DNA of 64,000 nucleotides from an uncultured Candidatus Binatia bacterium (GCA_965215605.1 OZ244070.1:3456001-3520000); one strand, 5' to 3'. Positions 36,050 through 60,253 are shown, counted from the first letter of the stretch. Translations and numbers: made by a program. Notes: generated by a model from the letters alone, not told the origin.

Positions 36050-38344
36050 ATGATTGTCGCTGTCCTCTCCGGTTTCGTTCTGGCCCTGCTGGCGCCGTCG
36101 CTGTACCGGCTGAGCCCAAGGTGGGCCGGCTGCTTGTTCTCGCTGTTTCCGGCGGTGTTGGCGCTCTATTTCCTGGGCCACATGGAAGGCGTGGTGGCCG
36201 GTGACGCGGTGCGGGTCGCCTATCCCTGGGTTCCGGCCATGGGGCTCGAACTCTCCTTCAACCTGGACGGCTTGGGATTGCTGTTCGCCCTCGCCATCAC
36301 GGTGGTGGGGACCCTGATCGTCACTTACGCCGGCAGCTACCTCCACGGGCATCCGTCGCTGCCGCGTTTCTATCTCTTCATCCTGATGTTCATGGCGTCC
36401 ATGCTGGGCGTGGTCCTGTCCGACAACCTCATCGCGCTGTTCATCTTCTGGGAGTTGACCAGCATTACCTCCTACTTCCTCATCGGCTTCGAGCATGACA
36501 AGGACACGGCCCGGGCCGCGGCGCTGCAGGCCCTGCTGGTGACGGGCAGCGGCGGGCTGGCGCTCATGGCGGGCGTGCTGCTCATGGGCCAGATCGGCGG
36601 CAGCTTCGAGATATCGGCCCTGGCCTCGGACAACGCCGCGCTCCACGGCCACCATCTCTATCCCTTGGTGCTGGCGCTGGTGTTCGCCGGCGCGTTCACG
36701 AAGTCGGCCCAGGTGCCGTTCCATTTCTGGCTGCCGGCGGCCATGGAGGCGCCCACGCCGGTGAGCGCCTACCTTCACTCCGCCACCATGGTCAAGGCCG
36801 GCGTGTACCTGCTGGCGCGGTTCAGCCCGGTGCTGGGCGGCAGCGACATCTGGCTCTACGTCGTCACCGGCTTCGGCGCCGCCACCATGCTGGCGAGCGC
36901 CTACCAGGCTCTCTACCAGACCGATCTCAAGAAGATCCTGGCCTACTCCACGGTGAGCGTGCTCGGCACCCTCACCATGCTCATCGGCCTCGGCAACAAG
37001 CTGGCCATCCAGGCGGCCATGGTCTTTCTCATGGCCCATGTCCTCTACAAGGCGGCGCTCTTCCTGGTGGCCGGGTCCATCGACCACGAGACCGGCACCC
37101 GCGACGTCCGGCAGCTCGGCGGGCTGCGCAAGACCATGCCCATCATCTGTGCCGGCGCCGCCATCGGAGCCCTGTCCATGGCCGGGCTGCCGCCGTTCTT
37201 CGGTTTCGTGGGCAAGGAGGCGCTGTACGAGGCGTTGACCCACGACAACATGCTGGTGACGGTGGTGGGCGTCCTCACCAGCATGCTGTTGTTCGCGGTG
37301 GCTTGGCTGGCGGGCATCCGGCCGTTCTCCGGCGAAGAGACCCACACGCCGAAGCACCCCCATGACCCGCCCTGGACCATGTGGCTGGGTCCGGTGTTCC
37401 TGGGGTGCCTGAGCGTGTTGTTCGGGCTGATGCCGGCCCTGCCCGAGAAGCTCCTGTCGGCCGCCGCCGGGTCCGTGCTGGGCAAGGAAGCGCCCATGCA
37501 CCTGGCGCTGTGGCACGGGTTCAATCCGCTGCTGGCGCTGAGCCTGGCGACCTTCGCCTTGGGCGTGCTGGTCTATCTCAACCGCGCCACGTTGCTGAGG
37601 GTCACCGAATTCGCCCTGCCCGTGGTCAGCCGCGGCCCGTCCTGCTGGTACGCGTCGTGGCTCCGCTTTCTCAACTGGTCGGCGGCGGGGCAGACCCGGA
37701 TGATTCAGAACGGCTACCTGCGCCTCTATCTCGCCACCATCATGACGGTGACCGCGGTGCTCGCATGGTACACCGTGCTGGCGCAGGCGGACATTGGCGT
37801 CATCGAGTTCAAGTGGGGTGAGATCCGCATCCATGAGTGGGTGTTGGGGATCGTGACGCTGGTGGCTTCCATCGCCACGGTCCGGGCGCAGACATTCCTG
37901 CGCGCGGTCATGGCTCTCGGGGTGGTGGGCTACAGCGTGGCGCTGTTCTTCGTCCTTTACGGCGCTCCCGACCTGGCCATGACGCAGTTCCTCATCGAGA
38001 CCCTGTCGCTCATCCTGTTCGTGTTCGTGTTCTACTACATGCCCCCGTTCAAGCGGTTCTCTACCCGCGGCGTGATCATGCGCCACGTGGCCATCGGCAC
38101 GGCGGTGGGGGCGCTGTTCACGCTGCTGGTGCTGGTGGCGACGTCGGTGCAGTGGCATCCCACCATTTCCACCTACTTCTCCCAGAACTCGTACCTGATG
38201 GGACAGGGACGGAACATCGTGAACGTGATCCTGGTGGACTTCAGGGGCTTCGACACGCTGGGCGAAATCACGGTGCTGGCGGTGGCCGGCATCGGCGTCT
38301 ACTCGCTGATCCGGCTGAGGCTCGGGAAGGGAGGGGACTCGTGA
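36050..38344 (+). CDS. mrpA: Multisubunit Na+/H+ antiporter subunit A
   Basis: '[14 protein letters not shown]', '[35 protein letters not shown]', '[13 protein letters not shown]'. Confidence 0.95.
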
Positions 38345-38766
38345 ACTCGCTGATTCTCAGGACGGCCAGCCGGTTCCTGCTGATCCTGCTGTTCCAGTTC
38401 TCCATCTTCCTGCTGCTCCGGGGGCACAACGACCCCGGCGGCGGTTTCGTCGGCGGGCTGGTGCTGGCGGCGGCGCTGACCCTCTACGCCATCGCCTACG
38501 ACGTGCGCTCCATGCGCCGTTTCCTGCCCTGCCGGGCACAGACCATCATCGCCTGGGGCCTCCTGGCCGCGGCCCTGAGCGGGGTCTGGTCCTTGTTCAA
38601 GGGGCAACCGTTCATGACCGGCCAGTGGGCGCATGTCTACATCCTGGGCCTCGATCTTCACCTGGGCACGCCGCTGATCTTCGACATCGGCGTCTACCTG
38701 ACGGTGGTGGGGGTCGTGCTCATCGTCATCATGAGCCTGGCGGAGGAAGTGGAGGACGACGACTAA
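38341..38766 (+). CDS. mrpB: Multisubunit Na+/H+ antiporter subunit B
   Basis: '[15 protein letters not shown]', 'FDIGVYL'; GTGA overlap with mrpA. Confidence 0.93.
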
Positions 38767-39113
38767 TGGAAGCGTTGCTCGCCATCGTCATCGGCGTACT
38801 CTATGCCTCCGGCGTCTACATGCTCATGCGCCGGAGCATCGTCAAGCTCATCATCGGGCTGGCGCTGCTGGCCCACGGCGCGAGCTTGCTGGTGTTCACC
38901 GCCGCGGGCCTGACCCGGGCGGTGCCTCCGGTGATCCCCTTCGGAGAAAAGGCCATAACCGGAACGGTGGCGGATCCGTTACCCCAGGCCTTGATCCTGA
39001 CGGCCATCGTCATCAGCTTCGGCGTGCAGGCCTTCGCCATGGTGCTGGCGTACCGCGCGTATCAGACCGTGGGCACCGACGACCTCGACGACATGAAGGC
39101 AACGGACACGTGA
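38766..39113 (+). CDS. mrpC: Multisubunit Na+/H+ antiporter subunit C
   Basis: '[16 protein letters not shown]'; TAATG overlap. Confidence 0.93.
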
Positions 39114-40612
39114 ACTCGCTTATCGTCTTGCCCATCCTGCTTCCGCTGCTGGTGGGGGCGAGTTGCGTGGTGGTGTGGCGCTACGTGGCCGCGCAGCGGA
39201 TCCTCACTCTGGCCGGCAGCATCGTCTACCTCGCGGTCGCGGTCGTGCTGCTGGAGCGGGTCGCCTCGGAGGGGGTCCAGGCGGTGCAGAAGGGCGCCTG
39301 GATCGCCCCCTTCGGCATCACGCTGGTGGCCGACATGTTCAGCGCCATCATGGTGGCCGCCACCGGGGTCGTGACGCTGGTGATCGTCGTCTATTCGCTC
39401 GGCACCATGGACCGCGCCCGGGAAGCCTGGGGCTACTATCCGCTGTTCAACATCCTCATCATGGGCGTGTCCGGCGCCTTCCTGACCGGCGATATCTTCA
39501 ACCTGTTCGTGTGGTTCGAGGTGCTGCTGATCTCGTCCTTCGTGCTGCTGGCGCTGGGAGGAGAGCGGGCGCAGCTCGAGGGCGCCATCAAGTACGTCAC
39601 CCTCAATCTGGTGGCGTCGGCGTTCTTTCTGGCCGCCGTGGGCATCCTCTACGCCATGGCCGGCTCCCTCAACATGGCCGACCTGTCGCAACGCCTCGGA
39701 GACGTGGCCCAACCGGGCCTGGTCACCACCCTCGCCATCCTGTTCCTGGTGGCTTTCGGCATCAAGGGGGCGATTTTTCCGTTGTTCTTCTGGTTGCCGG
39801 CCTCCTACCACACGCCGCCGGTGGCGGTCTCGGCCATCTTCGGCGGGCTGCTGACCAAGGTGGGCGTGTACGCCCTGATCCGCGTCTTCACGCTGCTGTT
39901 CCTCAACAACGTCGACTACACCCACACCATCATCCTTTGGGCCGGCGGCATCACCATGGTGACCGGCGTGCTGGGCGCCGTGGCCCAGTACGAGTTTCGC
40001 CGGCTGCTGTCCTTCCACATCGTGAGCCAGATCGGCTACATGGTCATGGGCCTCGGTTTCTTCACCCCCCTGGCCATGGCCGGCACGGTGTTCTTCATCG
40101 TCCACAACATCTTCGTCAAGACCAACCTGTTCCTGGTGAGCGGGGTCTCGCATCGCCTGCACGGCACCTACGACCTCAAGAAGCTGGGCGGGCTCTACCG
40201 CGCCCATCCGTGGATCGGGATGCTGTTCCTGCTGTCGGCGTTGTCGCTGGCCGGGGTGCCGCCCCTTTCCGGCTTTTTCGGCAAGCTGGTGCTGATCAAG
40301 GCCGGGCTCGACATCGGGCAGTTCGCGCTGGTGGCGGCGGCGCTGGGGGTGAGCCTGCTGACGCTCTTCTCCATGACCAAGATCTGGGCGGAGGCATTCT
40401 GGAAACCGCTGCCGGACGGCGCCGCGGTGAACGCGCCGGACGGCGGCATGGCGCTCATGCTGGGTCCCATCGTGACCCTCGCCATTCTGGCCGTGGTCAT
40501 GGGCGCCGCCGCGGCGCCGCTCTTCGAGCTGGCGCAACAGGCGGGCGAACAGTTGATGAACCCGGAGTCCTACATCCGGGCCGTGCTTGGAGCGAGGGGG
40601 GAGGGGGCATGA
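39110..40612 (+). CDS. mrpD: Multisubunit Na+/H+ antiporter subunit D
   Basis: '[12 protein letters not shown]', 'WLPASY', 'LLTKVGVYA', 'GVPPLSGF'. Confidence 0.95.
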
Positions 40613-41082
40613 CCGTTCTCCTGTGGAACATCATGCTGGCGGTGAGCTGGGCCGCGTTGACCGGGGAGGTGACGGCCTTGAACCTCGCCGTCGGTTTCGT
40701 CTTCGGTTTTCTGATCCTGTACTCGGTGCGGCGGCTGCTGCGCCCCTCCCGGTATTTCGAGAAGCTGTGGCAGAGCGTCAGCCTGGCCGCCTTGTTCGCG
40801 TGGGAGCTCCTGCTGGCGAACCTGCGCATCGCCTACGAGGTGGTGACCCCGTCGCACAACATGAAGCCCGGCGTGGTGGCGATCCCCCTGGATGCGGAGA
40901 CGGACGCCGAGATCACGCTGCTGGCGAACCTCATTACCCTGACGCCCGGCACCCTGAGCCTGGACGTGTCGGACGACCGGCGGGTGCTCTACATACACGC
41001 CATGTACGTGGACGACGCCGAGGAGTTGCGCCGGTCCATCAAGGACGGTTTCGAGAAGAGCGTCCTGGAGTTGCTGCGATGA
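40609..41082 (+). CDS. mrpE: Multisubunit Na+/H+ antiporter subunit E
   Basis: '[11 protein letters not shown]', 'LYIHAM'. Confidence 0.93.
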
Positions 41083-41348
41083 CGAGTCTGGCTTTCATTC
41101 TGCTCGCGGTCCTGAGCATCGGCATCGTGCTGGCGTTCATCCGCCTGCTGCGCGGCCCCAACATCCCGGACCGGCTGGTGGCGCTGGACCTGCTGACCAC
41201 CGTGGGCGTCGGCATCGCGGCGCTCTACTCCATTGCCTACGACGAGCCGGTCTATCTGGATGTCGCCATCGTCCTGGCGTTGGTCGCTTTCCTGGGAACG
41301 GTCACGTTCTCACGTTACATCGAGAAATGGGCACACCATGGTGACTGA
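41079..41348 (+). CDS. mrpF: Multisubunit Na+/H+ antiporter subunit F
   Basis: 'RLLRGPNIPDRLVALD'. Confidence 0.93.
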   Translation: MTSLAFILLAVLSIGIVLAFIRLLRGPNIPDRLVALDLLTTVGVGIAALYSIAYDEPVYLDVAIVLALVAFLGTVTFSRYIEKWAHHGD

Positions 41349-41685
41349 AATCATCTGCGGCGCGTTCATGATCATCGGCACCGCCTTCATGTTCCTGGGG
41401 TGCCTGGGCATCCTGCGCATGCCGGATCTGCTCACCCGGATGCAGACCGCCACCAAGCCGCCGACCCTGGGGGTGTTCTTCCTGATGCTCTCGGTGGCGT
41501 TGTACTTCCCGGACATCGGCGTCACCGTGAGGGTCCTCGCGATCACGGTCTTCGTCTTCCTCACGGCGCCCGTGTCGGCGCACATGATCGGCCGCGCCGG
41601 CTATCAGGTGGGCGTCAAGTTCTGGAAGGGCACGGTCATGGACGAGCTCAAGGACAAGTACCGCGGCACGTCCATCGACTCGTGA
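41338..41685 (+). CDS. mrpG: Multisubunit Na+/H+ antiporter subunit G
   Basis: 'GILRMPD..TRMQ.ATK..TLG', 'LTAPVSAH'. Confidence 0.93.
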   Translation: MVTEIICGAFMIIGTAFMFLGCLGILRMPDLLTRMQTATKPPTLGVFFLMLSVALYFPDIGVTVRVLAITVFVFLTAPVSAHMIGRAGYQVGVKFWKGTVMDELKDKYRGTSIDS

Positions 41686-43820: not shown

Positions 43821-45227
43821 CTACCGCACTTCGGCGATCTTGTTGAAGCCGTCGTAGGCCGCCACCTTGTAGGCTTCGGCGAAGGTGGGGTAGTTGAAGA
43901 CGTTGTCGCGGAAGTACTCGATGGTGCCGCCGAGGGCGATGACGGCGTGGCCGATGTGGATGATCTCGGTGGCCTCCTCGCCGATGGCGTGAACGCTCAG
44001 GAGCTTGAGGGTGTCGGGGTCGAAGATCAGCTTCAGCATGCCGGCGCGGTCGCCCACCATCTGAGCCTTGGCGACATCCTCGTAGAGGGCCTTGCCCACC
44101 TCGTAGGGCACGCGCTCGGCGGTGAGTTCCTGTTCCGTGCGGCCCACCATGGAGATCTCCGGGATGGTGTAGATGCCGTAAGGGAAGAAAGGCGCGGGGG
44201 CGAGGGACGGGCCGTCGAACATGTGGGTGCTGGCAAGGCGGCCCTGCTCCATGGAGGTGGAGGCCAAGGCCGGGAAGCCGATGCAGTCGCCCACCGCGTA
44301 GATGTGGGGTTGCGTGGTCTGGAAGCGCTCGTTCACGGCGATGCGTCCACGCGCGTCGGTGTCGATGCCGATGCGGTCGAGCTCGAGTTGGTCGGCGTTC
44401 GACTGCCGCCCCACGGTGTAGAGCAGGGACTCGCCGACGACCCGTTTGCCGCTCTCCAGTTCGGCACGCACCAAGCCGTTGTCCTGAATGCGCACGCCGG
44501 TGACGTGCTCGCCCAAGCGGAAAATGGCGTCGCGCCGGCGCATGTGGTAGCGCAGCGCCTCGATGATCTCCCGGTCGACAAAGTCGAGCATGGTGTCGCG
44601 CCGCTCGATGAGCGTCACGCGCACGCCCAGCGCCGACAGCATGGAGGCGTATTCCAGCCCGATGACGCCGGCGCCCACGACGATCATGCTGCGCGGCAAA
44701 TCGCCGCGGCCCGCGCTGCCGAAATCCTCCGCCACCATCACCTTGCGTCCGTCGTAAGGGATGTCCGGGTTGCGCGCCGAGCGGGTGCCGCAGGCGATGA
44801 TGATATGGTCGCCGCGTACCTGCTGCCCGTCCTCCACCTGCAGCGTATGGGCGTCCACGAAGTGAGCCCAGCCGTTCACCAGGGTCACGCCGTTGCGCTG
44901 GAGCTGATCGGTCACCTGTGACTGTTCCCGTTCGACCACCTTGCGCACCCGGAACATGAGGTCGTCCACGGTGACGTGCGCCTTGGGTGAGTAGGCTTGC
45001 CCGTAGAACGTCTTCTGCTGGAAACCAGTGAGGTAAAGCACCGCCAGCCGCATGGTCTTGCTGGGGATGGTGCCCGAGTGCAGGCACACGCCGCCGAGCA
45101 TGTCGTAGCGGTCGATGAGCGCCACGCGCTTGTTCATCTTGGCGGCCGCGATGGCGCCTTTCTGGCCTGCCGGGCCGCTGCCGATGACCAAGAGGTCGTA
45201 GGATTGTGCGTCCATGGGTTTCGTCAA
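43821..45227 (-). CDS. sthA: Soluble pyridine nucleotide transhydrogenase
   Basis: 'GSGPAG', 'GGVCLHSGTIPSK' (CxxxxT, second Cys absent), 'GAGVIGLEYA', C-terminal 'FNYPTFAEAYKVAA'; start may be 45215. Confidence 0.92.
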   Translation of the reverse strand: MTKPMDAQSYDLLVIGSGPAGQKGAIAAAKMNKRVALIDRYDMLGGVCLHSGTIPSKTMRLAVLYLTGFQQKTFYGQAYSPKAHVTVDDLMFRVRKVVEREQSQVTDQLQRNGVTLVNGWAHFVDAHTLQVEDGQQVRGDHIIIACGTRSARNPDIPYDGRKVMVAEDFGSAGRGDLPRSMIVVGAGVIGLEYASMLSALGVRVTLIERRDTMLDFVDREIIEALRYHMRRRDAIFRLGEHVTGVRIQDNGLVRAELESGKRVVGESLLYTVGRQSNADQLELDRIGIDTDARGRIAVNERFQTTQPHIYAVGDCIGFPALASTSMEQGRLASTHMFDGPSLAPAPFFPYGIYTIPEISMVGRTEQELTAERVPYEVGKALYEDVAKAQMVGDRAGMLKLIFDPDTLKLLSVHAIGEEATEIIHIGHAVIALGGTIEYFRDNVFNYPTFAEAYKVAAYDGFNKIAEVR

Positions 45228-45325
45228 GCCATTTCATGCGGGCCGGGCGCGAATACGGTTCCGGTGCTCATCGCTTCGCCTCGCCGGGTTCGCGCCGCTC
45301 ACCGTGGTGTCGTCGCGCCCCGGCT

Positions 45326-45691
45326 TCACAGCTTCTCATCGTCGGGCACCGTGTCGGTCACGAGGTCGCGGATCAACGGCCGCTTGGGCAACGGCTCCAC
45401 CCGGCTGCCCTCGGGCGTGAGGCGCGCGGTGCACAGGTAGGCCACCTGCCCATCCACCAGGGCCATGCAGGTCTTGCACGCGTTGGCGTTGACGCATCCG
45501 TAGCGGAAGGCCAAGCTGGAGTCCACGTGGCCGCGCACCCACACCAGCGCGTCGAGGACAGACATGCCCTCATCGTAGGGGACCCGGTACGTGTCGTACC
45601 GTTCCGGGTCCCCGGGGCGGCCGCGCCGCACGCACAACTCGGTCGTGTGCTGGTTGGTCTGTGTTGTCGTGCCGCCCATGCCGACGTCCAT
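45326..45691 (-). CDS. Stand-alone 2Fe-2S protein resembling only the N-terminal domain of SdhB/FrdB
   Basis: 'MSVLDAL...SLAFRYGCVNANACKTC...VDG..AYLC...VEPLP..PLIRDL'; ends where the 4Fe-4S domain would begin. Confidence 0.8.
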   Translation of the reverse strand: MDVGMGGTTTQTNQHTTELCVRRGRPGDPERYDTYRVPYDEGMSVLDALVWVRGHVDSSLAFRYGCVNANACKTCMALVDGQVAYLCTARLTPEGSRVEPLPKRPLIRDLVTDTVPDDEKL

Positions 45692-45703
45692 CCTCTCCAC
45701 TGG

Positions 45704-45777
45704 TGGATTCCCGCTCTACAGGCTGGTCAGAACTCCCCGAGACGAGCGTGACGAATACGTCATTCCCGCGGAAGCGC
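45704..45777. repeat. Degenerate CGTC-type repeat pair between the flavoprotein and 2Fe-2S genes
   Basis: TGGATTCCCGCT at 45704 and CGTCATTCCCGCGGAAGCG at 45758. Confidence 0.6.
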
Positions 45778-45779
45778 AA

Positions 45780-47444
45780 TTACCACTGCCAGCGCGCCGC
45801 CAGTTCTTCCCCGTTCATTTCAACGGCTTGGTTGCGGACGAGTCCCGGATCGCTCTCCGGGAAGTCCAGGCGTTGGTGGGCGCCGCGGCTCTCGGCGCGC
45901 CCCAGCGCCGCCCGCGTTACCGCTTCGGCGGTGGTGAGCATGGCGCGAAGCTCCAACCGGTCCTGCAGATCGAGGTTGAAGCCGACGGCTTCGTGCGCCG
46001 CCACCGGCGTTTTCCGGATCTCGCGGATGCCGTCGAGCGCGCGGCGGAGTCGCTCGCCGGTTCGGAAAGGGCCGACATCGTTCCACATGAGGTCCTGCAG
46101 GCGGCGTTGCAGCACATTGGCCGGGGCGCCGTCCTCCAGACGCGCGGCCGCGGCGCACCGGAGGCGCGCCTCCGCGCCGCCGGTCGCGGCGCCGTTCCAA
46201 CTCGAAGGAATGCCGGCCGCCGCCTTGCCGGCCGCCCGCCCCGCGCATTCGCCGAACACCAGCGCCTCGGTGATGGCGTTGCCCGACAGCCGGTTGGCGC
46301 CGTTGGCTCCGCCCACGGCCTCGCCCGCGGCGTAGAGCCCGGGCACGCGGGTCTCCATGCGCTCGTCCACACGGATGCCGCCCATATGGTAGTGCGCCGT
46401 CGGCGCCACCTCCACGGGCGTTTGCGTGAGGTCGATGCCGTTTGTGGCCAACCGGTCGATGACCGGGCCGAAAGCGTCGCGCAGAGTCTCGTCGGGAACG
46501 TGCCGGAAGTCCAGGTAGACGCCGCCGTGGGGGGAGCCCCGTCCCGCTTCCACCTCCTTCAGGATGGCGTAGGAAGCCTGGTCGCGCACTGTCGTGTACT
46601 TGCCGCCGTCCTGCCCGCCGTAACGGTGCATGAACTCCTCGAAGTCGCCGTTCAGGAGCCGGCCGCCGAGCTTGTAGCGGAAAGGGTCCCACATGATGGG
46701 GTCCATGCCCACCAGCCGCGGCGCCAGGTGGGCGATGGGAAAGAACTGCACGAACTCCATGTCGACGAGTTCGGCGCCGGCGCGCAGCGCCAGCGCGTAG
46801 GCCTCGCCGCCCATGTTGGTGGACGCGCTGTTGCGGCGATAGATCTTGGTGAGTCCGCCTGCCGCCAGAATGACGGCCTTGGCGGTGAAGGTCGCCACTT
46901 CACCCGACACCACGTCCAGGCCCACGGCGCCGGCCGCGCGGCCGTCCCGCACGACGACATCCGTGACCGTCACGTTGCTGACCCGGCGCACCGCGCTCAT
47001 GGTGCCCACCTGGCGCCGCAACGTCCCCGCGACGCCCGGCCCGGTGTTGAGGAAGTCCACGTAGCAGCAGCGCGCCCGGCCGTGGCCCGGAGCCTGGACC
47101 TGGCGGATGCGTCCACTTGGGCCGCGCGCCCAGTGGGCGCCCCAGCGATCCATGTCGAAAATGCGGGCGGGACCGTTCTCGCACAACAGGCGGGCGAGTT
47201 TCTCGTCACACAGTTCGCGGCCCGCGGCGAGGGTGTCGTTGAGATGGTCGCTCCAGTGGTCCCGTTCCTCGTGCCCGATGGCCGCGGCCACGGTCATCTG
47301 CGCCATGATGGTGGCGCCGCCGCGGCCCACCAGGGACTTGTCCAGCAGCAGAACCGACGCGCCTTCCCGTGCCGCGGCGATGGCCGCGTACATGCCGGCC
47401 CCGCCCGCTCCCACCACCAGAACGTCTGTGGACAGATGGACCAC
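45780..47444 (-). CDS. SdhA/FrdA/NadB-family FAD-binding flavoprotein, substrate unknown
   Basis: 'DVLVVGAGGAG', 'DMEFVQF', 'HYHMGGI', 'GLYAAGE', 'GANRL', 'RAESRGAH.R.DFPE'. Confidence 0.9.
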   Translation of the reverse strand: MVHLSTDVLVVGAGGAGMYAAIAAAREGASVLLLDKSLVGRGGATIMAQMTVAAAIGHEERDHWSDHLNDTLAAGRELCDEKLARLLCENGPARIFDMDRWGAHWARGPSGRIRQVQAPGHGRARCCYVDFLNTGPGVAGTLRRQVGTMSAVRRVSNVTVTDVVVRDGRAAGAVGLDVVSGEVATFTAKAVILAAGGLTKIYRRNSASTNMGGEAYALALRAGAELVDMEFVQFFPIAHLAPRLVGMDPIMWDPFRYKLGGRLLNGDFEEFMHRYGGQDGGKYTTVRDQASYAILKEVEAGRGSPHGGVYLDFRHVPDETLRDAFGPVIDRLATNGIDLTQTPVEVAPTAHYHMGGIRVDERMETRVPGLYAAGEAVGGANGANRLSGNAITEALVFGECAGRAAGKAAAGIPSSWNGAATGGAEARLRCAAAARLEDGAPANVLQRRLQDLMWNDVGPFRTGERLRRALDGIREIRKTPVAAHEAVGFNLDLQDRLELRAMLTTAEAVTRAALGRAESRGAHQRLDFPESDPGLVRNQAVEMNGEELAARWQW

Positions 47445-47787
47445 GCCGCAAAGTCTAGTGCAAAGCGAAGGAACCGTCCAGCACGCCCCCGGAACGCCTG
47501 CAGAAAAGGACCGGGACCGCGGGGAGGCGGTTCACTTGATGGGGCTGGTGTTCGGACGGGCCGAGCGGAACCTCCTTGGCGCGCCGCCCGCACGGGCTTG
47601 ATCCCCGTCGTTGCCGCTCTTCCCCGGGCTGGCTCCGGGGAACTGCCGTGAGCCGCGCATCTCCTTGACGCCGCAACGCCTTTCGTTCTAACAAGAAACC
47701 TCAAGGACAGGGACAGAGCAGGGACGGGTGGGCGCAACTTCTACGCAGTCTACACAAGGCAGCAAGCCGCAAAGGGGAGGACCCGAC

Positions 47788-49461
47788 ATGGCGCATGATC
47801 TGGTTATCAAGAACGGGCTCGTGGTCGACGGCACCGGCAGTCCCGGTTTCGAGGCGGACGTGGCCATCGACGGGGGAACCATCGCCGCCATCGGAAAGGA
47901 CGTGGGGTCCGGCACGACCGAGATCGACGCCCGCGGCCAGGTGGTGGCGCCTGGTTTCATCGACTCCCACACCCACATGGACCTCTTCATCGTGCAGTAT
48001 CCCCACGGAAATCCCGTGGTGAACTACGGCGTCACCTCCATCGTCATCGGCGACTGCGGCGCCTCCATCGCACCGGTGCCGCCTCAGGGCGAGCCGCGCG
48101 ACGTGCTGATTTCCTATCTGCGCCGGGTCCTCGACGACTACGTCAACGACGACGACTGGAAGTGGACCACTTTCCCCGAATACCTGGACTACCTCGAAGG
48201 ACGCGTAGGCGTGAACGTGGCCGCCTTGGTGCCGCACTCCCCGGTGCGCCTGACGGTCATGGGCGAGGCGGCCTACAAGCGCGAGTCCACTCCCGAGGAG
48301 CTGGAAACCATGAAGCAGATGGTCCGGGAGGGCATGGAGGCGGGCGGCATCGGCTTCTCGTCCAGCCCCCGGGGCGGTCCGGCGATCCATGCCGGCACTC
48401 CCAGCACCCTGGCCAGCCAGGAAGAGATGGCGGCCCTGGCCAACGTGGCGGGCGAATACGGCGGCTGTTTCCAGTTCAACGGCTTCGGCAACCTGCTGAA
48501 GCCCGAGAGCGGCTTCCCTGAGCTGGTGGAGAAGATCAACGTGCCGATGATCGGCAACGAGTTCCGGGTGAGGCCCGGGGAGAAGGACGACGGGCTGCGG
48601 GCCATCGAGCTCATGCGGGAGGCCCGGGAGAGGGGCAAGGACATCTACGGCGTGGTCATCCCTTACTCGCACATCCGGCGCTTCAATCTCGACGACTGCT
48701 TCATCCTGGAGGGCCTGCCTCTCTGGGAGGAGATCAAGGGCGACCGGAAGGAGCTGCCGCGGAAGCTCAAGGATCCCGAGGTGCGGCGCAGGCTGGACGA
48801 GCAGCGGCGTGAGAACGCGGGCGAGCCCGCGTATCCCGAATGGCTCGGATGGGGCGGCGTCTACTTCGACGGGATGGAGCGCGAGGACCTCAAGTCCCAC
48901 GAGGGCAGGAACGTCTCGGAGATCGCCGCCGCCGGCGGCAAGTCCGAGACGGACGCCTTCTTCGACACCTGGCTGGAGGACGGCCTCCAGTCCAGGCTCT
49001 ACTATCAGGGTTTCGCCAACGGACACCAGGATCTCCTGGCCGAGATGATCAAGACCACCGAAGGGCTCATCGGCACCGACGCGGGCGCGCATCTGGACCG
49101 GTTCTTCTGGCACGGCGCGCCCACCCGTGTGCTGGGCTACTGGCGCCGCGACAAGAACATCTTCAACCTCGAGGAGGCCGTCCACAAGGTAACCGGCCAT
49201 CCCGCCGCCAAGCTGCGCATGAACCGCGGCATCCTCAAGACCGGCCTTCCGGCCGACGTCACGGTGTTCGACCCCGACAAGATCGACGATCTGGCCAGCA
49301 AGCGCATGCCGGCCAAGCTCGACGAGGAGGAGATCCACCGGCATCCGCCCGGCATCGCCGCGGTGGTGGTCAACGGCAAGGTGGTGCTGGAACACGGCGA
49401 GTGCAAGGACGTCTTCCCCGGCCAGGTGAGGCGGCAGGATCTCTTCGTCCAGGGACAGTAG
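47788..49461 (+). CDS. Amidohydrolase (N-acyl-D-amino-acid deacylase-like)
   Basis: 'DLVIKNGLVVDGTG', 'PGFIDSHTH.D', 'GDCG', 'TDAGAH', 'ADVTVFDP'. Confidence 0.88.
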   Translation: MAHDLVIKNGLVVDGTGSPGFEADVAIDGGTIAAIGKDVGSGTTEIDARGQVVAPGFIDSHTHMDLFIVQYPHGNPVVNYGVTSIVIGDCGASIAPVPPQGEPRDVLISYLRRVLDDYVNDDDWKWTTFPEYLDYLEGRVGVNVAALVPHSPVRLTVMGEAAYKRESTPEELETMKQMVREGMEAGGIGFSSSPRGGPAIHAGTPSTLASQEEMAALANVAGEYGGCFQFNGFGNLLKPESGFPELVEKINVPMIGNEFRVRPGEKDDGLRAIELMREARERGKDIYGVVIPYSHIRRFNLDDCFILEGLPLWEEIKGDRKELPRKLKDPEVRRRLDEQRRENAGEPAYPEWLGWGGVYFDGMEREDLKSHEGRNVSEIAAAGGKSETDAFFDTWLEDGLQSRLYYQGFANGHQDLLAEMIKTTEGLIGTDAGAHLDRFFWHGAPTRVLGYWRRDKNIFNLEEAVHKVTGHPAAKLRMNRGILKTGLPADVTVFDPDKIDDLASKRMPAKLDEEEIHRHPPGIAAVVVNGKVVLEHGECKDVFPGQVRRQDLFVQGQ

Positions 49462-49494
49462 ACCGCCGTGCCGGGAACAGAGGAGAACACACGC

Positions 49495-50241
49495 ATGGAG
49501 GTCCTTGGACCGGAAGGGCTGATCGACGATCTTCGCCGTGTGCTGCGCGGCCGGTATCCCGTTCATCCCTTGCGCAAGCTGCTCCTGGGCGGTGAGCTCA
49601 CCCGGGAGCAGTTGCAGGGGTGGGCCAAGAACCAGTTTCACGAGTTCCGCAACATCCATCGCTTCTTCGGCATCCGTTACCAGAAGTGCCCGGTCCAGGC
49701 ATTGCGGCGCATGTTGCTGGAGAACATGGTGGAGGAAGAGGGCGAGGATCTGTTCGGCGGAAAGTATCCCAGCCATGCGGAGTTGTGGACCCGCTTCGGC
49801 GAGGGGCTGGGGATCACGCGCGAGGAACTGCACGGCTACGAGCCCTTGCCGGGAATCAAGGCGGGGCTGGAGATGTACGTGCAACTGGTCCAGCAGAGCC
49901 ACTGGGCCGTCGCCATCGGCACCGGCCTCGTCTTCGAGGGCGAAGGCCCCAGGCGGATGGGGGAGGAGCGCCAGGCCCTGGAGGCCCGGTATCCCTGGAT
50001 ACCCTCGGAGTCCCTGGCCTTCTTTCGCGCCCACGAGTATCATGACGAGGGGCATGGCGACTTCATCGTCGACGTGATCAAGGAACACATCATGGACGGG
50101 GGGCTTCAGGAGGAAATGCGGGCTGCGGTGCGGACGCGCGTGGACATCATGTGGCTTCAGAACGAGTCCATCTATCAGGCCTTCGTGCGCCCCCGGCTCA
50201 GCTCGGAGACTCTCGGCCGAATCGAGGCCGCCGGCAACTGA
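49495..50241 (+). CDS. Heme-oxygenase-like diiron enzyme (PqqC/CADD/TenA fold)
   Basis: 'GELTREQLQGW', 'ENMVEEEG..SHAELW', 'FEGE', 'FFRAHEYHDEGHG'; RBS AGGAG. Confidence 0.85.
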   Translation: MEVLGPEGLIDDLRRVLRGRYPVHPLRKLLLGGELTREQLQGWAKNQFHEFRNIHRFFGIRYQKCPVQALRRMLLENMVEEEGEDLFGGKYPSHAELWTRFGEGLGITREELHGYEPLPGIKAGLEMYVQLVQQSHWAVAIGTGLVFEGEGPRRMGEERQALEARYPWIPSESLAFFRAHEYHDEGHGDFIVDVIKEHIMDGGLQEEMRAAVRTRVDIMWLQNESIYQAFVRPRLSSETLGRIEAAGN

Positions 50242-51166: not shown

Positions 51167-51203
51167 TGGCGGGACACCAACGATTCGTCACACCGGGAAC
51201 GAC

Positions 51204-51827
51204 ATGGGATTTTACGACATCTCGCTGCGATTGAGCCCCGACACCGCTCGTTGGGTCACCGCGACGCCGTTCGAGCTGGTGGACCGTAGGCGGATGCAGC
51301 GGGGCGACCACAATAACTCGTCGAGCGTCAACATGAGCGTCCACAGCGGTACGCACATGGATGCGCCGTTCCATTTCGTGTCCGACGGGGCGGCCATCGA
51401 CCAGTTGCCTCTGGATCTTTTCATCGGGCCGGTCCTGGTGCACGAGGTGACCTCCCGCCGCTACATCACCGAGGAGCATGTGGCGGCGGTTCCGCCCGGA
51501 GAGCGCATCCTGTTCAAGACCCGCAACTCGGAGCTTCTGCGGCGGGCGGAGTACGATCCGGACTTCACCGCCTTCTCCGTCGGAGCGGCCGAGGCGCTGG
51601 TGGCCAAGGGCTACAGGCTCGTGGGTCTGGACTATCTCTCGGTGGCCCACGCGGACGAGCAGGTGCCGGTGCACCGGGCCTTCCTGGATCACGGTCTCGC
51701 GCTGCTGGAAGGCGTGGACCTCACCGGAATCCGGCCGGGCCGGTACGAGTTGATCTGCTTTCCCGTCTGCATCGCCGGCGCGGACGGCGCTCCCTGCCGC
51801 GCCATCCTCCGTGACCTCGATCCTTGA
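51204..51827 (+). CDS. Cyclase family metal hydrolase (kynurenine formamidase-like)
   Basis: 'HSGTHMDAPFH', 'VGLDYLS', 'VHRAFL', 'GADGAPCRA'. Confidence 0.9.
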   Translation: MGFYDISLRLSPDTARWVTATPFELVDRRRMQRGDHNNSSSVNMSVHSGTHMDAPFHFVSDGAAIDQLPLDLFIGPVLVHEVTSRRYITEEHVAAVPPGERILFKTRNSELLRRAEYDPDFTAFSVGAAEALVAKGYRLVGLDYLSVAHADEQVPVHRAFLDHGLALLEGVDLTGIRPGRYELICFPVCIAGADGAPCRAILRDLDP

Positions 51828-52902: not shown

Positions 52903-53796
52903 ATGGCACAAACACAGACCGATAACATGGCGCCAACCGAAAACCTGGCGCTCTATTGCGACTTCGAGAACATCGCCATCGGCGTCCGCGACGCACGCTA
53001 CGCCGACTTCGACATGCGGAAGGTCCTGGACCGGCTGCTGGTCAAGGGCAAGATCGTGGTGAAGAAGGCGTATTGCGACTGGGAGCGGTACCGCGAGTAC
53101 AAGCCAGCCATGCACGAGGCCTCCTTCGAGATGATCGAGATCCCTCACGTGCGCCAGTCGGGCAAGAACTCCGCGGACATCCGCATGGTCGTGGACGCGC
53201 TGGACCTCTGTTACACGAAATCCCACGTGGACACCTTCGTGATCATCAGCGGCGACTCCGATTTCTCCGCGCTGGTGAGCAAGCTGCGCGAGAACAACAA
53301 GGTCGTCATCGGCGTCGGCGTGAAGAATTCCACCTCCGACCTGCTGATCGCCAACTGCGACGAGTTCATCTACTACGACGACCTGGCGCGCGACTCCAGG
53401 CGCCGGGGCGGCGCCAAGCGCGCCAAGGCGGCGGCACGGACGCCGCGCAAGACGGCAGCGGCGCCGGTGGAGGAGAAGGAAAAGGCAGAGGAGAAGGCAG
53501 AGGAGAAGGCAGAGGAGAAGGAAAAGGAGGAGAAGAAAGAGGCCCAGGAGGCCCTGGACCTGGTGGTCGAGACCGTCACCCACCTCTTTGACGAACGCGG
53601 CGAGAAGGACACCATCTGGGGCTCCATGGTCAAGCAGGCCCTGAAGCGGCGCAAGCCGGGGTTCAACGAGCGCTACCACGGCTTCCGCTCCTTCGGAAAG
53701 CTGCTGGAGGAAGCCCAGACCCTGCGGCTTCTGGATCTCGAGCCGGACGAGAAATCCGGCGACTACGTGGTCAAGGGGGTTGTCCAGGACGACTGA
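52903..53796 (+). CDS. NYN domain protein with C-terminal OST-HTH/LOTUS domain (LabA/DUF88)
   Basis: 'YCDFEN', 'GKNSADIRMVVDA', 'SGDSDF', C-terminal 'PGFNERYHGFRSFGKLL'. Confidence 0.9.
   Translation: MAQTQTDNMAPTENLALYCDFENIAIGVRDARYADFDMRKVLDRLLVKGKIVVKKAYCDWERYREYKPAMHEASFEMIEIPHVRQSGKNSADIRMVVDALDLCYTKSHVDTFVIISGDSDFSALVSKLRENNKVVIGVGVKNSTSDLLIANCDEFIYYDDLARDSRRRGGAKRAKAAARTPRKTAAAPVEEKEKAEEKAEEKAEEKEKEEKKEAQEALDLVVETVTHLFDERGEKDTIWGSMVKQALKRRKPGFNERYHGFRSFGKLLEEAQTLRLLDLEPDEKSGDYVVKGVVQDD
53482..53517 (+). repeat. In-frame 12-bp tandem repeat, three copies (KAEE)
   Basis: AAGGCAGAGGAG three times, perfect, in the NYN-LOTUS linker. Confidence 0.85.
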
Positions 53797-53836
53797 CGGA
53801 TGCGCCGGCGGACCTCCCTCGCTCCGAGAACCATTC

Positions 53837-55252
53837 GTGCGCATCCCTTCCTTTCCGCAAGCACGAGCCCGTGAAATCAGGATCCTGAGCGTCCTTTCCG
53901 CCGGCACCTTCCTGTTCTTCAACAGCTACGGCAGCATCAACGTCGCCATCCCCAGCATCCAGGCCGAGTTCGGCAGCAGCCTGTCGGCGGTGCAGTGGAT
54001 CGCCACCATGGGGCTGGTCCTGTCCTCCAGCGTGGCCCTTTGCCTGGGCAGGGCAGGCGACATCCTGGGCCGCAACCGACTCTACAAGCTGGGGGTTACG
54101 CTTTACGGCGCCGGCGCGGCGCTGGCGGCCGCCTCGCAGACGTTCACGCAATTGGTCGCGTGCCGGGTGGTCATGACCGTAGGTCTCGCCATGGCCATGC
54201 CCATGTCGACGGCCATCACGGCCGCGGCGTCGCGGCCGGAACGGACCGGGTGGAGCCTGGGCTTCCTGTTGTCGGCGGCAGGCATCGGACGGGCCACGGG
54301 GCCGGCCCTCGGCGGCTTCTTCATCCACTTGGCGGGCTGGCGCGCGGTCTTCCTGGCCAACGCCGTGATCGGCCTGGCGGTGAGCGTCGCCGTGTGGCTC
54401 ATGCTTCGCGAGCGGGAGCGCCGCGGCAGCGAATCGTTCGACTACGCGGGAGCGGCGGCGTTGATCCTGGGGTATCCGTCGATCCTGGTGGGGTTGAGCC
54501 TCGGAGCCAACAGCGACTGGCGCTCGCCTTTCATCGCCTGGTGGTTCCTTCTCGGGGGCGCCGGCATGGCCGCCTTCGTGCTGCGTCAGTTCCGGGCGCG
54601 GCGGCCCTTGATACCGTTGCCGATGATGACGGACGTACCTCTGGTGCTGGCGTTCCTGACCATGGTGTTGTTTTCGGCGGCCTACTTCCCCATCTTCATG
54701 CTGTCGCCGCTGTACATGCGCAACGTGCTGGAGGTGACGCCGCTTCATCTCGGGCTCATCCTTACGACGCTGCCGGTGGTGGCCGCGGTCTGCTCACCCG
54801 TGAGCGGGCGTCTGTCGGATCGTATGGAGACCTGGATGCTGGTGGCGGTGGGGCTGGTGGCCGGCGCGGCCGGAATCGTTGTCTACGCCGGCTTGCAAGA
54901 CGGATCGAGTCCGGCCATGGTGTTGCTGGCGCTTGCGCTGATGGGGGTCGGAGTGGGCGTCTTTCTGCCCGCCCATCAGAAGACCGTGTTCGCGCTGGCC
55001 CCGCGCGAACACTACGGTCTCGCCGGCGGGCTGCTGTCGGCGTGCGGCCCGGGGGCGGGAGCCCTGGGCATCGGGCTTGCCGTCTCCCTCATGGAAGGCG
55101 CGGGTACGTTGGAATTCGTGGCCGCGCAAAGGGCCGCCATGCTGTGGTTGCTGCCGCTGCCTTTCCTCGCGCTCGGCCTCGTCTTCATCGGGCGTTTGCG
55201 CGCCAGGCGGAAGGGGCCGCCGCGAACGGATGCCGCGGCCGGTAAGGAATGA
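53837..55252 (+). CDS. MFS transporter (DHA2-like, about 14 TM)
   Basis: 'INVAIPSI', 'LGRAGDILGRNR', 'GPALGG', 'WRAVFLAN', 'FDYAG'; start uncertain (ORF opens at 53780). Confidence 0.85.
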   Translation: MRIPSFPQARAREIRILSVLSAGTFLFFNSYGSINVAIPSIQAEFGSSLSAVQWIATMGLVLSSSVALCLGRAGDILGRNRLYKLGVTLYGAGAALAAASQTFTQLVACRVVMTVGLAMAMPMSTAITAAASRPERTGWSLGFLLSAAGIGRATGPALGGFFIHLAGWRAVFLANAVIGLAVSVAVWLMLRERERRGSESFDYAGAAALILGYPSILVGLSLGANSDWRSPFIAWWFLLGGAGMAAFVLRQFRARRPLIPLPMMTDVPLVLAFLTMVLFSAAYFPIFMLSPLYMRNVLEVTPLHLGLILTTLPVVAAVCSPVSGRLSDRMETWMLVAVGLVAGAAGIVVYAGLQDGSSPAMVLLALALMGVGVGVFLPAHQKTVFALAPREHYGLAGGLLSACGPGAGALGIGLAVSLMEGAGTLEFVAAQRAAMLWLLPLPFLALGLVFIGRLRARRKGPPRTDAAAGKE

Positions 55253-56433
55253 TGCGCTTGCGGATCAGAGCCTCGGCCAACCTGCTCTATACACTATCCG
55301 CCATCTGCATGGCCTCGGGCGCCATCGGCGCCTCCATGCTGGCGCCCTTCTACATGGACGCCAGGGGTTTCCCGTTGGCGGTGGTGGGCATGCCCCTTCT
55401 GGTCAACGGCGTCGGCGCCCTGTGCTCCGACGTCGTGTCCGGCACACTGGCTTCCTACTTCCGGTCGAGCTTCCTGTTGCTGGCGTCGGTGGTCATCGCG
55501 GTGGTCACGGCGCTTCTGGGTTATGCTTTCGAGGACAGCCTGACCGTTTTCCTCGTGGCCTTCACCATCCTGGGCCTCACCGAGGCCATGTTCAGCCTCG
55601 CCATCCGGCGCATCGTGTTCGTGCAGTCCACTCCCGACCAGCAAGGAAAGGCCCAGGGACAGGTGGCGGCGGCGCTGGGGCTCGGCTTCGCCCTGGGCCC
55701 CACCATGGGCGGGTTCGTGGGCGAGTGGTGGGGGCTCGACAAGCTGTTCCTGGTGGTGGCGGTCCCTCAGAGCGTCAGCCTGGTCTTCATCCTGCTGGCC
55801 CGGGGGCACCGCACGGAAAAGCCGGTGGAGCGCAGTCCGCTGCCGCTGTGGCGGGTGGGCACGGGCCTGCTGGCACAGCCCGGCTTTCTCGGCGCCACCC
55901 TCGCCATCTTCCAGTCGTTCCTCTGCCTCATCGGCGTCACCCGCATCGCCTTTCCGTTCCTGGCGGTGCGGCGGGGCCTGTCCCTTGACATCATCGGCAC
56001 CATGGTGAGCATCTCCCGCCTGACCGACACCGCCGGGAGGCTGGGAGGCGGATGGCTCTCGGACCGAATCGGCACCCGCACGGTGATCCTCCTGGGAGTC
56101 TTCGTCACCGTGCCGGCCTTCGTCCTTCAGATCTTCGGCCACGGCTACATCGCGTTGCTGCTGCCGCTGTGCCTGATGACCGCCGGCTTCGGCCTCTCCA
56201 ACGTCGGCTCCACCACCCTCGCCCTTCAAGTCGCCGACGACTCCAGCAAGGGCGTGGCCCTCGGGCTGATCCGCGGCGGCACCTCCTTCGGCCGCATGAT
56301 CGGCCCCCTCCTCGCCGGCGTTCTGGTGGCCGACCTGGGTTTCCACTGGGGATTCATCGCCCTGGGGCTGATCTCGTTGGTGATCGGCGGGGGAGTAGCG
56401 GGTTTGTTCCGGAAACAACGGCAGCCGGTGTGA
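55249..56433 (+). CDS. MFS transporter
   Basis: 'GWLSDRIGTR', 'GPLLAG'; about 12 TM; ATGA overlap. Confidence 0.85.
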   Translation: MMRLRIRASANLLYTLSAICMASGAIGASMLAPFYMDARGFPLAVVGMPLLVNGVGALCSDVVSGTLASYFRSSFLLLASVVIAVVTALLGYAFEDSLTVFLVAFTILGLTEAMFSLAIRRIVFVQSTPDQQGKAQGQVAAALGLGFALGPTMGGFVGEWWGLDKLFLVVAVPQSVSLVFILLARGHRTEKPVERSPLPLWRVGTGLLAQPGFLGATLAIFQSFLCLIGVTRIAFPFLAVRRGLSLDIIGTMVSISRLTDTAGRLGGGWLSDRIGTRTVILLGVFVTVPAFVLQIFGHGYIALLLPLCLMTAGFGLSNVGSTTLALQVADDSSKGVALGLIRGGTSFGRMIGPLLAGVLVADLGFHWGFIALGLISLVIGGGVAGLFRKQRQPV

Positions 56434-56618: not shown

Positions 56619-57461
56619 ATGCGCAATTTCGACCTTCTTGAACCCAAAACCGTGCCGGAAGCGTGCCAAATGCTTGCCGCCGGCGACGATGTCCGCCCCG
56701 TCAGCGGCGGGACGGCCCTCCTCATTCTCGTCAAGCAGGGCCTCCTGCGGCCTCAAACCCTTGTGAACCTGAAGAAGCTGGAGGGAGCCAACGCCATCAG
56801 CCGGGACGCCGGCGGGGCGGTACGCATCGAGGCCATGGCCACCATCCACGAGGTGGAGACCTCCCAGGTGGTGAGGGAGCATTTGCCGGTGCTGGCCGAG
56901 GCTTGCCACCAGGTGGCCAACATCCGCATCCGGCACCTGGCTACCATCGGCGGCAATCTGGCCCACGGGGACCACCAGTCCGACCCCCCGGGGGTGCTGG
57001 TGGCGCTCGACGCGGAGGTGGAGTTGAGCGGCGCGGGCGGCACGCGCACCCTCAAGCTGGCGGATTTTCTACAGGGTACCTACGAGACGGCGCTGGAGCC
57101 GGGCGAGATGGTCACGGCGGTGACGGTTCCGCCCGTGGAGGGACGGCTGGCGGGCGGCTATCTCAAGTTCACCACCGGCTCCTCGGAGGAGCGGCCGTGC
57201 GCGGGAATCACCGCCCTGGTGCGGCTGGAGGGGGACCGCCCGGTGGAAGCGCGGCTTGCGGTGGGGGCGGTGGGGCCGCGGCCCTTGCTGCTCTGCCGGG
57301 ACGACCCGACGGAGGCGGCCCTGGAGCAGATGGCCGACCGGGCCGCCGAGGAGATCGACCCGATCCCGGACCTCCGGGGCTCAGCGGTGTACAAGCGCCA
57401 CCTGGTAAGGGTCCTGGGCCGCCGCGCCCTGGCCGCGGTGTGGCAGGAAGCCTGTTCATGA
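56619..57461 (+). CDS. Xanthine dehydrogenase family FAD-binding (medium) subunit
   Basis: 'SGGTAL', 'IRHLATIGGNL', 'DLRGSAVYK'. Confidence 0.9.
   Translation: MRNFDLLEPKTVPEACQMLAAGDDVRPVSGGTALLILVKQGLLRPQTLVNLKKLEGANAISRDAGGAVRIEAMATIHEVETSQVVREHLPVLAEACHQVANIRIRHLATIGGNLAHGDHQSDPPGVLVALDAEVELSGAGGTRTLKLADFLQGTYETALEPGEMVTAVTVPPVEGRLAGGYLKFTTGSSEERPCAGITALVRLEGDRPVEARLAVGAVGPRPLLLCRDDPTEAALEQMADRAAEEIDPIPDLRGSAVYKRHLVRVLGRRALAAVWQEACS

Positions 57462-59788: not shown

Positions 59789-60253
<465 letters not shown>

Follow-up and report, generated by a model that had tools for sequence, protein, structure and literature searches.

A 64,000-nucleotide (nt) stretch of DNA from an uncultured Candidatus Binatia bacterium (GCA_965215605.1 OZ244070.1:3456001-3520000), hereafter called the window, carries a pair of adjacent genes related to the flavoprotein and iron-sulfur subunits of succinate dehydrogenase and fumarate reductase. 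All positions are those of the whole window, and the three focal genes lie head to tail on its minus strand. The first gene (45780..47444, minus strand) encodes a flavoprotein of 554 amino acids (aa) with the SdhA/FrdA fold, matching Pfam FAD_binding_2 (1.3e-64) and Succ_DH_flav_C (2.4e-21). The second is a 124-aa open reading frame (ORF; 45326..45700, minus strand) matching Pfam Fer2_3 (2e-18), and its product, the 2Fe-2S partner, is here termed mini-SdhB. Reading of the sequence suggests the ATG at 45691, after GGAGAGG, as its likely start, which gives 121 aa. The third, sthA (43821..45227, minus strand), begins 98 nt past the mini-SdhB stop and encodes a soluble pyridine nucleotide transhydrogenase of 468 aa (Pyr_redox_2 and Pyr_redox_dim; 598 bits to the NCBIfam equivalog NF003585, cut-off 465). 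On the other side, the gene for an Amidohydro_3-family hydrolase (47728..49461, plus strand; Pfam Amidohydro_3, 6.5e-27) diverges from the flavoprotein gene.

An earlier note on this DNA, made from the sequence alone, had placed three genes at 43821-47444, with sthA about 100 base pairs downstream on the same strand, and had quoted several motifs of the flavoprotein. The coordinates, the spacing and each motif were recovered. The note had also described the pair as soluble and lacking anchors, in agreement with the locus as analyzed. No anchor genes are present, the pair being flanked by sthA and the amidohydrolase gene, and neither the flavoprotein nor mini-SdhB contains a hydrophobic or transmembrane segment (0 windows above a Kyte-Doolittle value of 1.6).

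The flavoprotein scores below the cut-off of each curated NCBIfam model for SdhA, FrdA, NadB and TfrA. Its top match is TfrA, at 404.8 bits against a cut-off of 718. TIGR01812 gives 355.8 against 567.3, the other SdhA/FrdA models likewise stay below their thresholds, and TIGR00551 (nadB) reaches 299.5 against 452.75. Residues 40-51 read GRGGATIMAQMT, and the remaining diagnostic motifs are QFFPIAH (233-239), WDPFRYKLGG (252-261), R287-D288, HYHMGG (351-356) and GANRL (382-386). Residues were mapped through alignments to solved structures and to E. coli FrdA, SdhA and NadB (K-12 record). In these alignments, the histidine that binds flavin adenine dinucleotide (FAD) covalently (FrdA His44, SdhA His45) corresponds to A44, while FrdA H232, T234, T244 and E245 correspond to F235, I237, W252 and D253. 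FrdA R248, R287, H355 and R390 are retained as R256, R287, H351 and R385. Among these, R287 occupies the position of the proton-shuttle Arg, and H351 and R385 those of the His/Arg carboxylate clamp. NadB E121, the amino-group ligand of that enzyme, aligns with A118, and NadB H244 with F235.

The remodelled substrate site comprises F235, I237, W252, D253, F255 and Y257, and its conservation was assessed in an alignment of 93 flavoprotein family sequences (56-100% identity). The substituted positions A44, F235, I237, W252, D253, P254, F255, Y257 and K258 are invariant in 93/93, as are the retained catalytic residues R256, R287, H351 and R385. A118 is likewise invariant in the family, and H239, R243 and K258 are family-specific invariant basic residues in or near the hinge. 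Being identical in every sequence, the substituted residues are under strong selection, and half of the dicarboxylate site has been swapped for aromatic and aliphatic residues. The alignment sustains several proposals of the earlier note, namely the His-to-Phe exchange, the loss of the Thr and Glu, the retention of RD, HYHMGG and GANRL, and the replacement of one carboxylate site by an aromatic pocket. The note had further argued from the missing His that the FAD is bound non-covalently. With A44 in the place of the flavinylated residue, this is probably, even very probably, the case. The potential of FAD bound non-covalently is below that of histidyl-FAD, which favors the reduction of an enoate, or the oxidation of an easily oxidized substrate, over the oxidation of succinate.

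The partner protein is as distinctive as the flavoprotein. Mini-SdhB can be aligned with the E. coli proteins SdhB and FrdB from their residue 1 to about residue 105 and ends where the two-cluster (4Fe-4S/3Fe-4S) domain of those proteins starts. Its predicted cluster ligands C69, C75, C78 and C90 follow a C-x5-C-x2-C-x11-C pattern, as opposed to C-x4-C-x2-C/D in E. coli. The protein also remains below the cut-off of every SdhB, FrdB and TfrB model (TIGR00384, 55.7 vs 88; TfrB, 53.3 vs 385). A survey covered 91 loci with mini-SdhB, of which 79 stem from the wider locus set described below and 12 from a class-wide search; the stop codon is included in 89 of them. The cysteine spacing is the same in 91/91 loci, and the tail beyond the last Cys measures 33-53 aa in 89/89 loci with a stop codon. 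None of these 89 carries a full SdhB with the C-terminal two-cluster half. The earlier note had described the partner as a 2Fe-2S domain only, with an unusual C-x5-C-x2-C spacing, and had regarded full-length SdhB in relatives as the mark of decay. The description stands and such relatives were not found at the 89 loci, so the restriction of the partner to a 2Fe-2S domain is conserved and does not reflect truncation.

A mini-SdhB profile retrieved 861 cluster representatives at an E-value of 1e-10 or better. In the best 150 of the 861, the C-x5-C motif is present 76 times, and 68 of the proteins with this motif are no longer than 180 aa. No entry for a natural one-cluster SdhB was found in the Protein Data Bank. 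In rare cases (metagenome ORFs P0121, P0122, P0152 and P0202), the C-terminal part of the flavoprotein and mini-SdhB share one reading frame, and these could be natural fusions or artefacts of frameshifts or gene calling. No fusion of mini-SdhB to another redox partner was seen; the longer forms consist of flavoprotein pieces or have no recognizable extra domain, and may represent frameshifts.

Structure prediction is consistent with a shortened complex II head. The AlphaFold2 (AF2) model of the flavoprotein, built from a 48-sequence alignment, reached a pLDDT of 84.7 and a pTM of 0.90. Foldseek aligned it with M. smegmatis Sdh1 and E. coli FrdA at TM-scores of 0.86-0.91 and 30-32% identity. 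The model of the flavoprotein with mini-SdhB gave an ipSAE of 0.88 (median of three runs) and the best control 0.00, the mark applied being reached by 58/80 solved complexes and 2/110 mismatched pairs; since SdhA/SdhB complexes are already solved, this pass indicates likeness and is not proof of binding. The runs share at least 87% of contacts, with mini-SdhB at a pLDDT of at least 79. The predicted interface joins the cluster loop of mini-SdhB (66-77) to the FAD loop (37-47) and the family-specific hinge insert (242-249) of the flavoprotein. The complex model supports, at the level of a prediction, binding between the two proteins.

The family is widespread. A word-indexed search returned 7959 of 8000 scored metagenome proteins at 1e-20 or better, and the best 120 of the 7959 are 66-100% identical to the flavoprotein. 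Public names of these 120 are either 'FAD-binding protein' or 'succinate dehydrogenase/fumarate reductase flavoprotein subunit', and the ESM Atlas offers generic 'FAD-binding protein' clusters and nothing more specific. In species-representative genomes, family-specific peptide patterns matched at least 586 stretches, of which at least 583 were confirmed, and the 80 best of the latter form the wider locus set. Their carriers belong to Binatia, Delta-, Alpha-, Beta- and Gammaproteobacteria, Verrucomicrobiia and Acidobacteria, and include the cultured Bradyrhizobium, Xanthobacter tagetidis and Oceanibaculum pacificum. Mini-SdhB lies directly downstream of the flavoprotein gene in 79/80 loci; at the remaining locus, the contig breaks off 47 nt past the flavoprotein gene. 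At the class level the distribution is patchy, with the pair in 13/151 genomes confined to two families. A phylum-wide search at 1e-150 found it, among 121 genomes, in the window's own genome only. In a quick tree, the family forms one clade (SH-aLRT 99), and the three E. coli proteins (SdhA, FrdA and NadB) fall outside it together with the canonical SdhA of the genome; given the quick search and the long outgroup branches, the tree speaks only to the monophyly of the family.

The same genome encodes seven SdhA-like genes, and the pair in the window is the sole copy with mini-SdhB. The canonical SdhA (NF005866, 983.7 bits vs 819) lies beside a full-length SdhB, and one further SdhA-like copy also adjoins a full-length SdhB. 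Four other divergent SdhA-like flavoproteins (L002, L006, L007 and L008) have no SdhB-like gene within 1.5 kb. The first of them scores below all SdhA, FrdA and NadB cut-offs, and the remaining three gave no NCBIfam match at 1e-60 or better.

These observations make it probable that the pair is a soluble, cytoplasmic, heterodimeric flavo-iron-sulfur oxidoreductase that acts beside the single carboxylate of a non-dicarboxylate substrate. Its cofactor content, chemistry, reaction direction, substrate class and external redox partner are inferred. The flavoprotein and mini-SdhB would represent the catalytic head of complex II cut down to its first two redox centers. In the proposed cycle, H351 and R385 would hold the single substrate carboxylate above the flavin. 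A hydride could then pass between the alpha or beta position of the substrate and N5 of the non-covalent FAD, with the accompanying proton moved by R287 (together with R256 and D253), as in fumarate reductase. Electrons would be exchanged singly, in either direction, via one [2Fe-2S] cluster placed at the FAD loop. This cluster would be exposed to a diffusible partner, an arrangement that would replace the 4Fe-4S/3Fe-4S wire and the quinone site.

The nature of the substrate can be narrowed by the pocket. Where succinate, fumarate or aspartate would place the second carboxylate, the family appears to have an invariant aromatic and aliphatic box formed by F235, I237, W252, F255 and Y257. Such a box in place of the second carboxylate site implies that the substrate would not be a C4-dicarboxylate. 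More likely, it is a monocarboxylate that carries at its distal end a ring (aromatic or heterocyclic), a nonpolar chain or a cationic group. The monocarboxylic or aromatic enoate suggested by the earlier note would be compatible with this pocket and with part of the gene neighborhoods.

Comparison with known systems places the pair nearest to the head of complex II, for which the closest structures are M. smegmatis Sdh1 (7d6v/7d6x) and E. coli quinol:fumarate reductase (1kf6). The two-domain flavoprotein fold is the same (phmmer matches to complex II structures at 6.8e-79 and 2.5e-67), and both the Arg of the proton shuttle and the carboxylate clamp of His and Arg are shared. Mini-SdhB is a homologue of the 2Fe-2S domain in SdhB, and the complex model places it at the equivalent site. 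Differences lie in the low sequence identity (26-32%), the missing covalent-FAD His, the three replaced residues of the dicarboxylate site, one cluster instead of three, the C-x5-C loop in place of C-x4-C, and the lack of membrane anchors and of a quinone site. The thiol:fumarate reductase of methanogens, TfrAB, is the top-scoring curated model for both subunits and, like the pair, is soluble and anchor-less. However, neither score (404.8 and 53.3 bits) comes near its cut-off (718 and 385), and the fumarate ligands are lost in the flavoprotein. TfrB, at about 490 aa, also has a C-terminal region that is absent from the 124-aa partner.

A functional analogy is provided by soluble 2-enoate reductases of the Fcc3 type, which act on urocanate (UrdA), acrylate (Ard) or cinnamate (Crd) and are members of the same superfamily. 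Enzymes of the Fcc3 type rely on haem, and these reductases are not known to carry the Succ_DH_flav_C domain that the flavoprotein has. Sequence matches between the flavoprotein and UrdA, Ard or Crd are partial and weak (1e-15 to 1e-24), and no SdhB-like cluster accompanies these types, unlike the pair. As described in a preprint, soluble 2-enoate reductases combine non-covalent FAD and a retained proton-transfer Arg with altered carboxylate ligands, which yields specificity for monocarboxylic enoates (bioRxiv 10.1101/2023.03.04.531086). The same preprint reports that acrylate or cinnamate is reduced by soluble enzymes of the fumarate reductase superfamily in which the C1/C4-carboxylate residues are altered, and that these 2-enoate reductases obtain their electrons via flavin (FMN-binding) domains (10.1101/2023.03.04.531086). 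It also warns that those carboxylate positions are not full determinants of specificity (10.1101/2023.03.04.531086).

Gene neighborhoods elsewhere vary widely and often comprise catabolic genes for organic or heteroaromatic acids. A tally of 101 same-strand, closely spaced genes was obtained from 46/80 loci, the simple caller based on third-position GC content (GC3) giving none in the other 34. No Pfam family occurs more than five times among the 101, and no conserved membrane gene was found among them. Within the fetched flanks of the 80 loci, a molybdenum-cofactor (MoCo) hydroxylase large subunit occurs in 16 loci, CoxG in 13 and UbiD in 7; these are raw counts, and the link of MoCo hydroxylases to the pair is a lead only. 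Some of the arrangements are tight operons, as at L030, where the operon contains the MoCo large subunit, its 2Fe-2S subunit, the flavoprotein, the partner and UbiD. Further neighbors include FAD monooxygenases, Rieske ferredoxins, transporters of the major facilitator superfamily (MFS) and TctC types, coenzyme A (CoA) ligases and transferases, enoyl-CoA hydratases, RidA and amide hydrolases. The amide hydrolases that recur near the pair in some loci are of the M20, Amidohydro_2, hydantoinase and Amidohydro_3 families. In one group of loci, the pair follows housekeeping genes (LeuA-like, MnmA, MiaB-like and RNase III).

Several points weigh against a soluble one-cluster oxidoreductase for a non-dicarboxylate substrate. 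The neighborhoods give no single answer, and an invariant pocket amid such varied contexts is unexplained. No external electron partner of the pair was found. Full-text searches of the literature, with subscription journals and supplements outside their coverage, found no biochemical data on any family member. The pocket is inferred from alignment alone, and the AF2 loops that hold key substitutions (39-48 and 240-250) are of low confidence. In addition, the complex may have scored well merely on account of the solved SdhA/SdhB structures.

A broader and more tentative proposal, which we consider possible though somewhat doubtful, is that the pair typifies a widespread 'minimal complex II' class with a common chemistry. 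Such a class would consist of soluble heterodimers with non-covalent FAD and one exposed 2Fe-2S cluster, in which the aromatic box F235/W252/F255/Y257 binds one common non-dicarboxylate. Candidates would be an aryl- or heteroaryl-propionate or -acrylate, or a quaternary-ammonium carboxylate, with a diffusible one-electron carrier as redox partner. In this Binatia genus, SthA may then be recruited as an interface to NAD(P)H.

The earlier note had grouped all three genes into one candidate module, possibly coupled to NAD(P)H balance. In a three-component NAD(P)H-linked system of this kind, SthA would oxidize NAD(P)H and electrons would pass via the mini-SdhB cluster to the flavoprotein, or in the reverse direction. 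The shared strand and the short distances (98 nt here, about 16-45 nt between partner and sthA in relatives from the genus) are compatible with such a module, as is the order amidohydrolase (divergent), flavoprotein, partner, sthA, kept in 8/8 and 17/17 further genomes from this genus. In Hydrogenobacter, a soluble fumarate reductase that depends on NADH and has subunits of the pyridine-nucleotide-oxidoreductase type has reportedly been described. Adjacency does not extend further, however. It was found at 0/78 wider loci outside the two closest relatives (one additional locus has a weak, 30% SthA match upstream of the pair) and in 0/4 carriers of the sister family, and the pair is near 0/12 more distant SthA loci. 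Moreover, the whole block of amidohydrolase, pair, sthA and an LLM gene is syntenic within the genus, and such synteny says little on function because it is expected in close relatives whatever the function.

The absence of a terminator-like site between the genes could also be cited for a joint transcript. Nonetheless, the scan found none across the whole 4.4 kb examined, and the result is thus uninformative. The genome has a second SthA-family gene (G000:C1:1516596-1518020, L134; 508 bits, above cut-off), 43% identical to the window SthA, and the window copy could in principle be dedicated to the pair. Yet the window SthA scores as a standard SthA, and its identity to SthA proteins from other families (49-66%) exceeds that of the second copy (42-46%). 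It therefore looks like the ordinary, main sthA of the lineage and not a dedicated paralog. SthA is also a hydride-transfer flavoprotein, and we know of no case in which it reduces iron-sulfur proteins. A three-component module is thus unlikely, and the grouping proposed in the earlier note is not supported. Most likely, sthA is merely the next gene in this Binatia genus.

A NadB-like dehydrogenase of amino acids or amines, in which C-N oxidation releases an imine and the iron-sulfur subunit replaces O2 or fumarate as acceptor, appears slightly less probable still. NadB has the same fold as the flavoprotein, is soluble and likewise has no flavinylated His, and its hinge insert is similar in length. 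At some loci, the recurrent neighbors of the pair include amide hydrolases and RidA, which is an imine/enamine deaminase. Against these likenesses, NadB needs no iron-sulfur subunit, its ligands E121 and H244 are replaced by the invariant A118 and by F235, and the nadB model is matched at 299.5 where 452.75 is required. The RidA cluster is seen at 3/80 loci only. Neither NadA nor a NadB above cut-off was found in the 97%-complete genome; a role as iminoaspartate-forming L-aspartate oxidase is therefore unlikely, and the aspartate route to NAD seems to be absent from this genome.

The least probable of the functional alternatives, which we regard as very unlikely, is a soluble variant of fumarate reductase or succinate dehydrogenase that binds its dicarboxylate otherwise, for example via H239, R243 or K258. 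Retention of the proton-shuttle Arg and the His/Arg clamp, the invariant basic residues in or near the hinge, and TfrA as top NCBIfam match all speak for it. On the other hand, F, I and W occupy the positions of FrdA H232, T234 and T244 throughout the family (93/93 sequences), and the scores are far under every SdhA, FrdA and TfrA cut-off. Non-covalent FAD disfavors succinate oxidation, and the genome already holds a canonical SdhA with full SdhB as well as a second pair with full SdhB. Two further explanations were rejected: replacement of NadB, by the lack of a NadA match in the 97%-complete genome and by A118 and F235 at NadB ligand positions, and decay or truncation of SdhB, by 0/89 full SdhB and by invariance of the substituted flavoprotein residues in 93/93.

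Few respiratory enzymes are understood as well as complex II, and new substrates have repeatedly come to light among its soluble relatives (NadB, flavocytochrome fumarate reductases, and urocanate, acrylate and cinnamate reductases). The present family occurs in at least several hundred bacterial species, and no description of a design that keeps the first iron-sulfur cluster alone was found. For its members, the label 'succinate dehydrogenase/fumarate reductase flavoprotein subunit' would be wrong, and the identity of the substrate would correct many annotations. It would probably also expose a missing step in the breakdown of organic or heteroaromatic acids, and show how a one-cluster SdhB passes electrons to a soluble carrier. 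A full-text search (subscription journals and supplements outside its coverage) found no published study of the SdhA-like flavoprotein/mini-SdhB family, and the literature on Xanthobacter tagetidis and thiophene-2-carboxylate yielded nothing on the flavoprotein gene. A flavoprotein associated with anaerobic benzene metabolism (PMC13416013) is a different enzyme, of the PCMH/GlcDEF type, and has no bearing on the pair.

The surroundings of the pair in the window offer further observations. The Amidohydro_3 hydrolase gene adjoins the pair in 8/8 genus loci and is followed after 7 nt by a Haem_oxygenas_2 (PqqC/TENA/haem-oxygenase-like) gene; the two span 47728-50241, both divergent from the flavoprotein gene. 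Strong matches to the hydrolase and the PqqC-like gene were limited to the two closest relatives (L009 and L010) among the 80 wider loci, and the hydrolase is a syntenic neighbor inside the genus only. A gene of the Cyclase family (PF04199), which includes kynurenine formamidases, lies at 51201-51827, 3.8 kb upstream of the flavoprotein gene. About 9 kb from the pair, a MoCo hydroxylase is encoded by large-subunit (56663-59779) and 2Fe-2S-subunit (59789-60253) genes, preceded by two MFS transporter genes (53780-56433). The 4.06-Mb genome contains 40 MoCoBD_1 matches above cut-off (large subunits of the xanthine-dehydrogenase/CO-dehydrogenase family), about one per 100 kb, and with so many such genes their proximity in the window means little. 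On the plus strand, 36050-41685 is occupied by a row of long, strongly hydrophobic ORFs, which from their translations we take to resemble a multi-subunit Mrp/Mnh-type cation:proton antiporter operon.

Two contexts outside the genus may also be recorded. In a SAR116 single-cell genome (L023:3113-11949), the pair is flanked by a gene of the fumarase/adenylosuccinate-lyase family, an acyl-CoA dehydrogenase, a family III CoA-transferase, an HpcH/HpaI-type lyase and an N-formylglutamate amidohydrolase, presumably a context akin to the degradation of C5-dicarboxylate-CoA or itaconate-like compounds. In six loci of a group labelled Binatia/Deltaproteobacteria (L011-L017), a gene for a DUF6282 protein of about 296 aa lies convergent to the pair, just downstream of it.

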